Origin: a virus
Taxonomy: Duplodnaviria; Heunggongvirae; Uroviricota; Caudoviricetes
IMG/VR virus record: IMGVR_UViG_2541047122_000017
Strand: one strand, 5' to 3'
DNA: 4,431 nt
Part shown: positions 858-4,117 of the stretch, piece after piece
Position numbering within the stretch: position 1 is the stretch's first letter
How the letters are laid out: each line of letters begins with the position of its first letter
Position numbers and translations under genes: made by a program
The notes under the pieces: generated by a model
Seen by the model: only the letters and a program-made list of their open reading frames with translations
What the model was told of the DNA's origin: nothing
The model's database searches: none

Positions 858-1093
858 TAAAACCTCGCCAGTTTAAATCCCGGTTTTCCCCGCCTGCGGC
901 TCACCATCGCGGCAAGCCTGCGTTCCCACTCCTGACGTCCGGCGCGGATCTGAGAAAGGCTTTCCAGCGTCAGTTGCTGCCCGTTGAAGGTGACAGACTT
1001 TCCCTCCAGTACGGCCATTTCCGCTTCACGGTACCGCTGTATCATTTCTCTGGCTTCTTCTGTGCTCACAACCAGCCTCCTGATGTTATCCAT
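857..1093 (-). CDS. W: Head-tail connector / head completion protein, gpW-like (78 aa from the ATG at 1093; about 70 aa if the GTG at 1069 is the true start)
   Basis: Small ORF immediately downstream of the terminase large subunit. The C-terminal region (QEWERRLAAMVSRRRGKPGF) resembles the basic RRRGPAGF-type C-terminus of lambda gpW as I recall it; size and position match lambda W. Stop TAA at 859-857. Confidence 0.8.
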   Translation of the reverse strand: MDNIRRLVVSTEEAREMIQRYREAEMAVLEGKSVTFNGQQLTLESLSQIRAGRQEWERRLAAMVSRRRGKPGFKLARF

Positions 1094-3189
1094 GGATTAT
1101 CTTCCGCACGCTCCGTCCACAGTTTTTTCTTCCGGCGACGGCGTTTTTCTGCCCCGGCCGTCAGTTCCGGGGATACCGTTTCACCAGAACGCTCCTGCGG
1201 GAAGACGAGCCACGTTTCCCGCTGTGCCCAGTCCGGTGCGGAGGGCCAGCGGATCTTTTCGTAACCATGCAGAACGGCAAGCGCATCCGCATAAACCAGC
1301 AGGTCAAACGCTTCGTTAGCGCCCCTGCCCGGTTTTCGCCATTTTCCGTCACTGCCGCGCTCTTCATAGGTCAGCTCATCGTAAAACCACCGCCCCAGCC
1401 AGTCGGGAAAGTGGATATAGTTCGGCCCTGGTGTGTCACGCCACAGGGCATTATTTACACGATCCTTAAACGCATCCGTCTGAACCAGCCACAGCGCGAC
1501 ATCGCCACTGGCTCTGGCACGGCGGGCACTTCTGCCGGTATTATCCGGGAAGGTTCGGTTAATCAGCCTGTCACGGCGAAGTCCATCCCCCTTGAACAGA
1601 AACACCCTGTTGCCCAGTCCGTCACTCCGGCAACGACGCCAGAAACGATAGGCGTTATCTGTCACCCCGGCTTCCCCTCCCGTATCCACCGCCATGGCCA
1701 TCAGACGCATGCGCACATCCGGATCAGAAGCCAGCGGCCATGTTTTATGGAACACATCCGTCAGCAACAAATCCCAGTCCTCCGGATATGCCGCCGGATC
1801 AACCGGCAGACTTTCACCGTTGGGACTGCAGCGCAGTGAATGCCGGATGTTGTAGCGATCAACAATCCAGCGTTCCCCCTGCTCTCCGTATCCGGTGATC
1901 TGCACAACAAAACGGCGATTTTTACCGCCCTGTACGTCAACCGTTGCCTCAATAAAACGCACACCATCCGGCACAGATCGCCGGGGAAACGGCTCGGCAC
2001 GCTGTTCAAGCAGTTCACTTTTACGCTGTTCCGTGGCTGAACGGGGCAGATAGGGTCGTCCGATATCGGTGTTCACCACCGCTTTCAGGGTCTCTTCACT
2101 GCCGGTTCGCTCATACTCTTCTTCTGCCGCCAGCAGTTTAAAAATCAGTTGTTCCCAGGTCTGAAACGCCGCAGCTGGCCCCTCCATCCAAAATGACGCA
2201 ATCCGGGAGTTTCGTGGCGTTCCGGTGATACTGCCGTCCGCCGCCGCCCGTTCACCTTCACGAAGCCAGATCCCCTGGTTATTCAGTTCGCGTTTCTGCT
2301 CAGGGGCAATCAGCCCGCGACAATGCGGACACATCAGACGGGCAGCCTGACCGGCAGCCACAAAATCCGGGTTATTCCGGTATCCGGTCATGTTATCCAT
2401 CACCGGCTGAAAATATTCCCCGCAGTGCGGACACGGCCAGTACCACCGGCGGCGGTCTCCCCGGTTATACAGTGACAGGATCCCCGTTGTTGGCGGTGCC
2501 TCATGTGCGCCACCACAACGCCATTTGGTATCGGTGATATCCCGCCCCGGTGAACTCTCGACCAGGGTCATCCCCGAGGACATAAAGGTGGTGGTACGCT
2601 TTGAGGCCAGCGTGAAGGCATCCCCTTCCCCGTCCACGTTTTCAGGGAAACGGTCATAATCCGTCAGCGCCACACGACGGTAATCCGAAGAGGAAAAGAC
2701 GGTGATCGACGGCCAGCCAATCTTCAGGAAGGAGCCGTCAAGAAACATTTTATCGTGGACGTTGTTGTCATTACGGGAAGGACTGAGGCGCTTGCTGACC
2801 TCCGGACTGTGGCGAAACGTCCTGGAAAGACGCGTTCTGGAATGCTCACGCGCCTTCGTCTCAGTCATCTGCACCACCAGCATATCCGCCGGATCACAGA
2901 TGATGCCGTACACAATCCAGCCATCAATCAGCCCTTCGGTTTTCCCGGTTCGCGCAGGTCCCACAAACACCACCGCGTCATATTCACGGGCTGATAATGT
3001 ATTAATGGGGTCAATCATATAGGGCGTCAGCGATGACTCCCACGGACCGGAAGTATTGGCTCCCCGTGGAACCCGCATATAACGCCTGATGGCTTCCGCT
3101 ACTGGTAACCGGCTGGGTGGGCGAAACAGCGAGGCCACTTCGCGCCAGATATCGGATGCGCGGCTATGGCTCTCGTTCACCTGATTCAC
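1066..3189 (-). CDS. terL: Terminase large subunit, lambda gpA-like (707 aa)
   Basis: Long ORF with a canonical Walker A P-loop GPARTGKT (aa 77-84, nt 2938-2961). Two CPHC pairs (C253-x2-C256 and C287-x2-C290), the first (WPCPHCGEYF) resembling the CPHCGEE motif of lambda gpA. DTGG motif (MAVDTGGE) and a C-terminal region (EAFDLLVYADALAVL) reminiscent of lambda gpA (NEALDCFVYALAAL) from memory. N-terminus ...LFRPP... parallels lambda gpA ...LFRPEP.... Start is GTG at 3189-3187 overlapping the upstream stop (GTGA). Confidence 0.95.
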   Translation of the reverse strand: MNQVNESHSRASDIWREVASLFRPPSRLPVAEAIRRYMRVPRGANTSGPWESSLTPYMIDPINTLSAREYDAVVFVGPARTGKTEGLIDGWIVYGIICDPADMLVVQMTETKAREHSRTRLSRTFRHSPEVSKRLSPSRNDNNVHDKMFLDGSFLKIGWPSITVFSSSDYRRVALTDYDRFPENVDGEGDAFTLASKRTTTFMSSGMTLVESSPGRDITDTKWRCGGAHEAPPTTGILSLYNRGDRRRWYWPCPHCGEYFQPVMDNMTGYRNNPDFVAAGQAARLMCPHCRGLIAPEQKRELNNQGIWLREGERAAADGSITGTPRNSRIASFWMEGPAAAFQTWEQLIFKLLAAEEEYERTGSEETLKAVVNTDIGRPYLPRSATEQRKSELLEQRAEPFPRRSVPDGVRFIEATVDVQGGKNRRFVVQITGYGEQGERWIVDRYNIRHSLRCSPNGESLPVDPAAYPEDWDLLLTDVFHKTWPLASDPDVRMRLMAMAVDTGGEAGVTDNAYRFWRRCRSDGLGNRVFLFKGDGLRRDRLINRTFPDNTGRSARRARASGDVALWLVQTDAFKDRVNNALWRDTPGPNYIHFPDWLGRWFYDELTYEERGSDGKWRKPGRGANEAFDLLVYADALAVLHGYEKIRWPSAPDWAQRETWLVFPQERSGETVSPELTAGAEKRRRRKKKLWTERAEDNPWITSGGWL

Positions 3190-3662
3190 ATATCGGCCTC
3201 ATCACAACAGTCAATGACTGCCTTTTCCAGTGTGTCGCGGATCTCATCAACCACAATCTGTACTTCATTCAGTTGTGATGCGGTCCACCCCCTGTCCCTC
3301 TCCAGCCGGTCAGGCCAGGTTTCCAGTACCTGAACTATCGCTTTCACCACGACAGAAAAGGACCGCCTGACATCACTGACTGGCACAAGCTGAACAGTTT
3401 CATGCTGAAATTTAAGACGCTCGCGCTCGGACTGATACCATGCCTTACGAGCGTGAGGATCCATATCCTCATCTTCGGAAGATGGTGGTTTTTCCAGCAA
3501 CGAAGTTATCAAATCCGTCAGGAGATACAGTTTTTTCTTTTCATTACTGCCTGGTGCAAGAGGAACATCCGCCATTCTGGCGGCAACAGTCTGCCGGTGC
3601 AGACCTGAAAGGGCTGCCAGTTGATTAATATTTAACTTCATATTTTTCAGCTCGCCGTCCAT
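3186..3662 (-). CDS. terS: Terminase small subunit, lambda Nu1-like (158 aa; possibly 151 aa if the internal ATG at 3641 is used)
   Basis: N-terminal helix-turn-helix-like segment MKLNINQLAALSGLHRQTV parallels lambda Nu1 MEVNKKQLADIFGASIRTI (from memory). Sits directly upstream of, and is translationally coupled to, the terminase large subunit. Strong SD GGAGGG 6 nt upstream of the ATG at 3662. Acidic central stretch SSEDEDMD. Confidence 0.85.
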   Translation of the reverse strand: MDGELKNMKLNINQLAALSGLHRQTVAARMADVPLAPGSNEKKKLYLLTDLITSLLEKPPSSEDEDMDPHARKAWYQSERERLKFQHETVQLVPVSDVRRSFSVVVKAIVQVLETWPDRLERDRGWTASQLNEVQIVVDEIRDTLEKAVIDCCDEADM

Positions 3663-3847
3663 TTACATCCCTCCACATAAACCGCAGAACAGAAGTGACT
3701 CTGTTTTTTTGTAAAGAAATGCCGCCATATAAAGATGTCGAACAAAAAACAACCACAATCATCATCTTTTTAATACTAACAGCATTAAAAACAACAAGTT
3801 ACCATCATGATGATGATGACGATAAAATCACAAAAATGCGCCTTTTT
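3663..3847 (-). promoter_or_regulatory. Candidate cosB-like terminase-binding region (AT-rich, with repeated ATCATCAT / CATCATGATG motifs)
   Basis: About 185 bp of AT-rich non-coding DNA between the putative cosN and the terS start, the same place and roughly the same length as lambda cosB. Contains AATCATCATC (3757-3766) and the perfect 10-bp palindrome CATCATGATG (3803-3812) followed by GATGATGA. Function is inferred by position only. Confidence 0.4.
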
Positions 3848-3866
3848 CCGCGCCCGCCCGCCCCGT
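3848..3866. other. Candidate cosN (cohesive-end site); predicted 12-nt overhang about 3852-3863
   Basis: Minus strand reads ACGGGGCGGGCGGGCGCGG. This resembles the lambda cos junction ...ACG/GGGCGGCGACCT CGCGG... as I recall it, with the first six bases after the nick (GGGCGG) identical. It lies about 190 bp upstream of the terS ATG, similar to the cos end to Nu1 distance in lambda. It is the only strongly GC-rich block in an otherwise AT-rich intergenic region. Confidence 0.45.
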
Positions 3867-4117
3867 GTTCAGGCCCACCCCACCAGGAGGACCCGCAAAA
3901 ACGATAATGGTTATCATTTGCAACAAAATCCAGTTTCTTCCACCATCGCACCGGACTGGCGACTATGAGGGGACAACACCGCGCTCCGTTAACGCGGTAA
4001 ACCCCGGTGTGTATCGTTTTTGATTATCCCCGCACACTCTCGCAGAGGAGTCTCCCTGTCGGGCTGCGGTCTCTGTTAATGCAGGAATACGGTGACGATA
4101 CGGCGCATCAGCAAAAC

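Follow-up and report, generated by a model that had tools for sequence, protein, structure and literature searches.

What might a set of short repeats be doing in an apparently empty stretch of DNA between two phage genes? The DNA analysed here (4,431 nt, referred to as the window) spans a junction in the late region of a lambdoid prophage of the VT1-Sakai, i.e. Shiga-toxin, type, with its genes on the − strand. Read in the direction of the phage, Rz is followed by a putative cos, terS (DUF1441), a gpA-type terL and a small W-like ORF, after which the portal gene begins (Table 1). The intergenic stretch is 99.4% identical to that of Enterobacteria phage VT1-Sakai and 94-97% identical to that of several Stx2 phages, and the VT1-Sakai and Stx2 phage records name the product of the DUF1441 gene as small terminase subunit. 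Such DNA is widespread, as positions 3663-3900 were matched in 689 of 5426 complete E. coli genomes (about 1 in 8), and both Stx1 and Stx2 prophages are among the carriers of the ~130-bp cosB-like segment. An initial annotation had noticed repeats in this segment and proposed them as candidates for the phage's own R elements, different in sequence from those of lambda. Comparison with related phages supports this proposal, and we consider it probable that the flagged repeats correspond to R3 and R2 of a lambda-type "complex" cosB and are candidate docking sites of TerS.

Table 1. Features of the window, listed in phage direction; bp are counted from the predicted left end.
Feature	Position	Strand	bp from predicted end	Details
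Rz	4423-4118	−		Rz1 nested within
Non-coding stretch, Rz to terS	4117-3663			455 bp
cosQ-like heptamer GGGTCCT	3888..3894	−		24 nt upstream of predicted left end
cosN-like site CACG/GGGCGGGCGGGC/GCGG	3848..3867	−		Predicted cohesive-end sequence starts at 3863
Conserved cosN-proximal block AAAAAGGCGCATTTTTGTGATTTT	3824..3847	−		Spacer from cosN to first repeat
R3-position element, (CAT)4 block	3802..3823	+	41-62	Phage orientation ATCGTCATCATCATCATGATGG
R3 core matches GATGATGAT, GATGACGAT	3809-3817, 3815-3823	+		
IHF-like site TAACTTGTTGTTT	3789..3801	−	63-75	Presumptive I1 equivalent
R2-position element AAGATGATGATTG	3756..3768	−	96-108	Core GATGATGAT at 3766..3758; inverted relative to R3
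R1-position element	3731..3743	+	121-133	Phage orientation GTTCGACATCTTT; core GATGTCGAA on + strand, 3734-3742
terS, small terminase subunit	3186..3662	−		158 aa; Pfam DUF1441, E = 3.8e-48
TerS residues 1-62, predicted winged-HTH DNA-binding domain	3477-3662	−		AF2 model
terL, gpA-type large terminase	1066..3189	−		Pfam GpA_ATPase 1.8e-81, GpA_nuclease 6.2e-84
Small W-like ORF, then start of portal gene	beyond terL	−		

We placed bp 1 of a predicted left end at window position 3863, because the left ends of lambda (GGGCGGCGACCT), LLS and cdtI line up with the cosN-like site, and because the same motif recurs in relatives: among the ~160 loci encoding DUF1441 TerS proteins that were compared, GGGCGG…CGCGG accompanied by GGGTCC ~30 bp upstream is found again and again at fixed distances from terS, and in most related loci GGGTCC lies ~30 bp upstream of the cosN-like sequence. 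For lambda the true ends were used in the alignment (…GGGTCCTTTCCGG…GTTACG, followed by GGGCGGCGACCT CGCGGG…) and for cdtI the ends of its record. In the record of phage LLS, a 12-nt 5′ cohesive end (GGGCGGCGCGCT) is annotated at position 1, and terS starts at 130. The GGGTCCT of the window also aligns with the GGGTCCT near the right ends of lambda and cdtI. The role of cosQ and a conservation rule for cosQ and cosN in lambda-like cos phages have been described (PMC4669245), and the cosQ heptamer (3894-3888), the GGGCGG left half and the CG nick flanks (CACG/GGGCGG.../(C)GCGG, 3867-3848) are all present in the window. The block which separates the cosN-like site from the first repeat resembles its counterpart in LLS and cdtI, CGCGGAAAAAGGCTAGTTTTT.

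The repeats themselves lie exactly where the initial annotation had seen them. AATCATCATC occupies 3757-3766, and the perfect palindrome CATCATGATG at 3803-3812 runs into GATGATGACGAT, which ends at 3823; all of this is located between the cosN-like site (3848-3867) and the terS start codon (3662-3660), in DNA that is AT-rich as described (35% G+C). We found that they contain a perfect 9-nt inverted repeat, ATCATCATC at 3758-3766 and GATGATGAT at 3809-3817, with 42 nt between its arms. The motif ATCATCAT occurs three times in the window, each time within the flagged stretch, against 0.32 occurrences expected (three were reached in 1 of 200 shuffles), and two of the three matches overlap inside one tandem run. 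When 3663-3851 was subjected to dinucleotide shuffling, however, a perfect inverted repeat of at least 9 nt appeared in 185 of 2000 shuffles (9%), so that the repeats alone are weak evidence, barely above chance; a trinucleotide run of at least 12 nt was a much rarer product (7 of 2000, or 0.35%). The significance of the repeats thus comes from their conservation in the ~160 related loci, not from the window alone.

Loci which share the TerS type of the window (93-100% protein identity, here called type A) provided 17 distinct sequences. Three blocks, GCGCATTTTTGTGATTTTATCGTCATCATCATCAT, AAAAGATGATG and TTTTTGTTCGACATCTTT, are invariant in all of them, while the spacers in between carry many substitutions, and conservation is strongest in the R3 block. 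Hence the CAT run, AAAAGATGATG and the third block are retained in phages sharing this terS, as the initial annotation had suggested should be checked. One member of its repeat set did not survive this comparison. The 10-bp palindrome had been listed among the candidate sites, yet its outer half is variable: positions 3806-3823 are invariant in the 17 sequences, whereas 3801-3805 read CATCATGTGTG, CATCATTAGTG or CATCATAATGG in relatives, and the palindrome is lost in most of them. As 3801-3805 are among the variable positions, the palindrome is incidental, and it is the CAT run that is conserved as a unit. Conservation of this run extends far beyond type A. LLS-like phages, whose DUF1441 TerS is ~50% identical to that of the window, carry the same 15-mer, GTCATCATCATCATG, at bp 44-58, which is a matching offset from the cohesive end; this 15-mer was found in LLS-like prophages of Enterobacter, Citrobacter, Klebsiella, Kosakonia, Rahnella and other genera, and it is followed in these loci by AAGATGTCGAATCG and GTGTTCACCATC. 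It is with respect to cosN that the elements keep a fixed distance, and not with respect to the terS start, which lies 129 to 203 bp away among the loci (in the window the terS ATG is at about bp 202 from the predicted end).

A 9-nt core, RRTGnnGAW, fits three elements, on the + strand at 3809-3817 and again at 3815-3823 (R3), on the − strand at 3766-3758 (R2) and on the + strand at 3734-3742 (R1). The middle element is thus inverted with respect to the outer two, R1 having the same orientation as R3. The short motif had been described as present in both direct and inverted orientation; the relation that would matter for function is the inverted one, not the combination of both. Similarly, the repeat set as flagged had caught R3 and R2 but missed the third element, at 3731-3743, which is located outside the flagged span, and to these an IHF-like site at 3789-3801 can now be added. 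The cores of R1 and R2 share 7 of 9 positions. The register of R3 is ambiguous within its periodic run, and the one given in Table 1 is thus a presumptive choice. It should also be noted that the ~7-fold enrichment of RRTGnnGAW in cosB is a description and not a test, since the core was derived after inspecting the data.

The IHF-like sequence between R3 and R2, TAACTTGTTGTTT, has one mismatch to the core consensus YAANNNNTTGATW (WATCAANNNNTTR on the other strand); the resemblance is one to a consensus, and binding of IHF there is a prediction. A core with at most one mismatch lies at bp 59-64 in this same orientation in 80 of 92 distinct cosN-anchored relatives, 37 of them with a perfect match, although such counts overstate the evidence, as the segments are mutually related and not phylogenetically independent, even if they come from many genera. 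For comparison, at most one mismatch was seen in 8.5% of shuffles and a perfect core in 0.7%. In the opposite orientation, the 92 cosN-anchored segments never offered a core better than two mismatches.

If the repeats are bound by TerS, they might be expected to change together with its DNA-binding domain, and the initial annotation had indeed proposed to look for co-variation between the repeats and the HTH of terS. Three phages, CP-1639, 1720a-02 and ASU11 (type B), encode TerS proteins whose last ~70 residues are identical to those of the window and whose first ~87 are different. In a sliding comparison with CP-1639, the stretch that begins at Rz, includes cosQ, cosN and the spacer and ends at 3826 was 93-100% identical; identity dropped to 0-77% from 3825 to ~3400 and was then 100% through all of terL that was compared. 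The block at 3824-3847, invariant or nearly so in type A, is common to type B as well, which diverges only beyond it. The divergent cassette thus consists of the repeat-bearing DNA and the N-terminal domain of TerS (residues 1 to ~87), and its right-hand recombination boundary falls within terS, where the DNA-binding part of the protein meets the TerL-binding part. In the CP-1639 cassette the R3 position is occupied by GGCACCATCACCACCAGTG, R2 by TAGTGTCGAATCTGG and R1 by GTTCATCACTGGTG, and the IHF consensus between R3 and R2 is matched perfectly. The repeat-bearing DNA has therefore been exchanged along with the TerS N-terminus, and other helices go with other repeats; the outcome of this check favours the initial proposal.

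The same tendency was observed in the wider sample, in which the anchored loci formed 10 clusters according to their DNA-binding domain. Six clusters have a recognition helix of the HRQT(V/A)… kind, and in all six RRTGnnGAW fits at the three positions; R2 always follows the IHF core by 34-35 nt, and R1 follows R2 by 23-24 nt. The R2 equivalents in other clusters, GATGTCGAA, AGTGTCGAA and GGTGTCGAT, are located 34-35 nt beyond the point where the IHF site starts, and every cluster with the HRQT helix has GTTC(A/G)nCAYC 23-24 nt past the R2 core. Among these six, a …GGHESN… wing goes with GTG cores and an …APGSN… wing with ATG cores. Clusters with the helices NRGTVKKRL, DRKTVRKRL, NRNMVARRL and HRDTVKKRL have unrelated repeats. 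In clusters such as L144 and L087, the latter a distant relative from Erwinia, R2 and R1 clearly repeat each other, or R3, in inverted form; the R3 and R2 positions of L087 hold a 10-nt inverted repeat, GGTGTCCACA.

The proteins encoded next to the putative cosB are consistent with such a role. TerL has ATPase and endonuclease domains according to Pfam. For TerS, Pfam returned DUF1441 only and thus did not place it in the Nu1 family by sequence; hhalign against lambda Nu1 gave a probability of 15.8%, and a sequence search of the PDB with TerS yielded no match with E below 0.28. Residues 1-62 were modelled with AlphaFold with the help of 33 homologues; the model reached a pLDDT of 86.2 and has the topology strand-helix-helix, loop/wing, strand-helix, while the full-length model shows long C-terminal helices. 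In a Foldseek search against 350,542 PDB chains, the top matches were 7lw0, 7lwr and 7lxs, which are small-terminase DNA-binding domains homologous to Nu1; the corresponding domain of lambda gpNu1 (1j9i) was fourth, and chain 6hn7_B, a lambda-type TerS, was sixth. Probabilities were 0.93-1.00 and TM scores 0.56-0.68, with E values of only 0.015-0.18 for this 55-residue domain. The N-terminal domain of TerS is thus predicted to be a winged HTH of the gpNu1/MerR type, its model best matching domains of the gpNu1 family. In the hhalign register, the recognition helix (17-24) and wing (31-39) of Nu1, whose residues have been described (PMC9026076), correspond to residues 24-31 and 38-46 of the window's TerS, and it is in these segments that types A and B differ most, while their C-terminal ~70 residues are the same. 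Together, the gene position, the annotation in phage records and the modelled gpNu1-like domain indicate that DUF1441, a Pfam family of "unknown function", supplies a large group of cos phages (enterobacterial, Pasteurellaceae and Vibrionaceae) with their small terminase subunit.

The arrangement in the window closely follows that of lambda, in which gpNu1 and IHF act at a cosB of the form R3-I1-R2-R1, and the order cosQ-cosN-R3-IHF site-R2-R1-terS of lambda is also the one predicted for the window. In lambda, R2 is likewise inverted with respect to R3 and R1 (PMC4669245), an arrangement described for lambda and "many lambda-like phages" (PMC4669245, PMC9026076); many of the latter, including Gifsy-1, have complex cosBs (Feiss and colleagues). 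A gpA-type TerL and a winged-HTH N-terminus of TerS (modelled in the case of the window) are also common to both. In lambda R3 occupies ~49-65 (about 49-64 on the lambda sequence, 50-65 according to PMC9026076), R2 109-124 and R1 151-166, with Nu1 at 191. In both phages R3 begins ~45-50 bp from the cohesive end, and R3 of the window extends over about bp 41-62 from the predicted end, or 43-62 if 3821-3802 is counted. The sites of the two phages are unrelated in sequence (RRTGnnGAW and a CAT-periodic R3 in the window, CGTTTCC(T/G)TTCT in lambda), R1 and R2 are 25 bp apart from start to start as opposed to 42 in lambda, and the three elements of the window are less alike than the 16-bp R sites of lambda. 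The TerS proteins belong to different families, DUF1441 and Nu1, with marginal sequence similarity.

Other lambda-like phages provide further parallels. Phage 21 and lambda have cosQ and cosN in common, differ in cosB and in the N-terminal half of TerS, and have an interchangeable C-terminal, TerL-binding half (PMC4669245, PMC9026076). This is exactly the pattern that distinguishes type A from type B, although the discrimination between lambda and 21 has been measured (>1000-fold), whereas that between types A and B is deduced from their sequences. N15, with a simple cosB, and Monarch, with a complex one of three R elements and an IHF site (PMC4669245), represent lambda-like cos groups with a recognition helix and an R3 of their own, as does the window. 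N15 has a single R3 and an rR2 inside terS, whereas R2, R1 and the IHF-like site of the window are all upstream of terS; no further copy of ATCATCAT occurs inside the window's terS, and the window does not conform to an N15-type simple cosB. A further group comprises LLS, yong2, mEp460, Ayreon and cdtI, which have a DUF1441 TerS, the same type of cosN and the layout of three elements with an IHF-like site, and of which LLS and yong2 also share the (CAT)4 R3. In LLS- and mEp460-like phages the R2 and R1 sequences are different and the distance to terS is 129-186 bp, as against about 201 in the window, while cdtI- and Proteus-type members, with another recognition helix, have GGTGACA-type repeats. 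Our literature search found no description of cosB for LLS, yong2, mEp460, Ayreon or cdtI; the genome paper on Ayreon merely predicts the existence of a cos site (PMC5764929).

By analogy with the lambda model (PMC4669245, PMC9026076), the elements could work as follows. In the phage direction, cosQ (GGGTCCT), cosN, a 30-nt conserved spacer, R3, the IHF site, R2 (GATGATGAT), R1 (GTTCGACATC) and terS would form one functional series. IHF would bend the AT-rich DNA between R3 and R2, and this bend would allow the inverted R3 and R2 to be occupied by the two winged-HTH domains of a TerS dimer. Bound in this way, TerS would place the gpA-type TerL to nick cosN, ~45 bp away, and thus start packaging. 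R1 might be an accessory site that adds affinity.

One may ask whether the repeats could be functionless, that is, chance low-complexity sequence which arose by trinucleotide slippage in AT-rich intergenic DNA. A base composition of 35% G+C, the 9% of shuffles with an equally long inverted repeat and the overlap of two of the three ATCATCAT matches within one tandem run would fit this idea. Nevertheless, a trinucleotide run of this length is rare in shuffles (0.35%), 17 relatives all retain the CAT run and its inverted partner unchanged while the neighbouring spacers vary, and the identical GTCATCATCATCATG recurs at the same cohesive-end offset in LLS-like phages of many genera with a TerS only ~50% identical. 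Conservation thus largely refutes a chance origin, which we regard as very unlikely. Conservation of another kind, that of a coding sequence, would be expected if the stretch encoded a small + strand protein in which the GAT run reads HHDDDDD. An intact 70-codon ORF (3695-3907, +) does exist in the window, and PGAP/RefSeq lists a "hypothetical protein" from 3695 to ~3922 in several E. coli genomes (e.g. NZ_CP027591.1, 2591996-2592223), but this ORF is frameshifted within 5-25 codons in 11 of the 17 distinct type A sequences and runs antisense across cosB, cosN and cosQ, and discrete conserved blocks with variable spacers are unlike a codon-periodic pattern. This possibility seems to be the least likely of all, and the PGAP entry across cos is probably a false gene call.

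It is similarly hard to believe that the repeats are a promoter, an operator or the target of a DNA-binding protein other than the terminase. MerR-type HTH proteins are usually transcription factors and one sigma-70-like match is present at 3799-3828 on the + strand; however, promoter-like matches occur at chance level (1 found, 0.8 expected), this one points away from terS, and neither an Rfam search nor a terminator search of the region gave any match. Moreover, the distance of the repeats is fixed to cosN and not to the terS start, and they are exchanged along with the DNA-binding domain of TerS. A more serious objection accepts that TerS binds here and limits the true essential site to the (CAT)4 block, as in the "simple" cosB of N15, the GATGATGAT and GTTCGACATC blocks being kept as accessory, host-factor, or terS translation or transcription signals. 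N15 functions with a single R3 and R1 of lambda is merely accessory (PMC4669245); in addition, R1 and R2 resemble R3 less than the R sites of lambda resemble one another, and the R3 block is the one most strongly conserved. Still, R2 and R1 are invariant in type A, their spacings are fixed across clusters (34-35 and 23-24 nt), they change with the DNA-binding domain and are clear inverted copies in L144 and L087, and an IHF site between R3 and R2 makes sense only if both sides are bound (according to the model in PMC9026076). For these reasons, a lone functional R3 appears unlikely to us.

The interpretation of the repeats as R3 and R2 of a complex cosB implies no unusual biology. Such a set of docking sites would most likely be an ordinary and expected feature of this phage group, and a specialist would not be surprised by it, as the mechanism is textbook lambda biology. 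While the architecture and its logic are well known, the site sequences are newly described for the DUF1441 group, our search of the literature having found no description of cosB sites of DUF1441-type terminases or of Stx prophages. A concrete role could thus be assigned to ~130 bp of "empty" intergenic DNA. The analysis also offers testable site sequences, for which GATCATCAT may be taken as a notional mutant form of the R2 core GATGATGAT, and two natural specificity variants, types A and B, with a common TerL, which bear on whether co-resident EHEC prophages cross-package and hence on the spread of toxin genes. At least 6-10 classes of DNA-binding domain and cosB are present in our sample of loci. 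We may speculate, with considerable reservation, that DUF1441 phages hold a large uncharted set of packaging specificities, and that cosB and the DNA-binding domain of TerS are passed as a single cassette between EHEC prophages with otherwise identical TerL and TerS C-termini. In this scenario, the cassette would decide which co-resident lambdoid prophages of O157-type strains package each other, and a triplet-periodic R3 (CAT, CAC or GCA runs) would permit an easy shift of specificity by point change or slippage.

Several minor observations were made in the course of this comparison. The length of the cosN-like site varies among close relatives (window 3848-3867; loci L002, L003 and L095-L128): it reads GGGCGGGCGGGCGCGG (16 nt) in the window and VT1-Sakai, GGGCGGGCGGCGCGG (15 nt) in most type A and B loci and GGGCGGGTCGGCGCGG in some, while in LLS, cdtI and lambda it comprises 17 nt (a 12-nt end plus CGCGG). 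Compared with these three phages, the distance between the conserved CG flanks is thus shorter by 1 nt in the window and by 2 nt in most relatives of types A and B, and it amounts to 10-11 nt here as against 12 in lambda. In view of these differences, the cohesive end may be 10-11 nt long, or perhaps still 12; alternatively, cos may be defective in some of these prophages. The "complete genome" record of ASU11 (ON416862) lacks 44 bp, GAACACGGGGCGGGCGGCGCGGAAAAAGGCGCATTTTTTGATTT, relative to window positions 3826-3870, with both flanks present; the missing segment takes in the whole predicted cosN. This gap would fit an assembly joined across the virion ends, or a real deletion of cos.

A near-palindrome, GATAACCATTATC on the − strand, is located at 3903-3915, ~10 bp upstream of cosQ. 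It is kept in lambda (GATAATCATTATC) and is looser in cdtI (GATAATCACTCTC); we know of no named cos subsite at this place. The DNA between Rz and cosQ is bracketed by a perfect 11-nt inverted repeat, CAAAAACGATA and TATCGTTTTTG at 3896-3906 and 4012-4022, with arms 105 nt apart, which may be fortuitous because its left arm is different in VT1-Sakai (ATCATTTTGC). Finally, the cdtI/Proteus-type branch (L079, L081, L090 and L092 from Proteus, Morganella and Xenorhabdus, and L087 from Erwinia) has long palindromes past the IHF site, built of GAGGTGACA and TGTCACCTC as in TTGAGGTGACAATATTATTTAATTGTTGTCACCTCAA, so that the layout of its cosB differs from that in the window's branch and exceeds it in elaboration.
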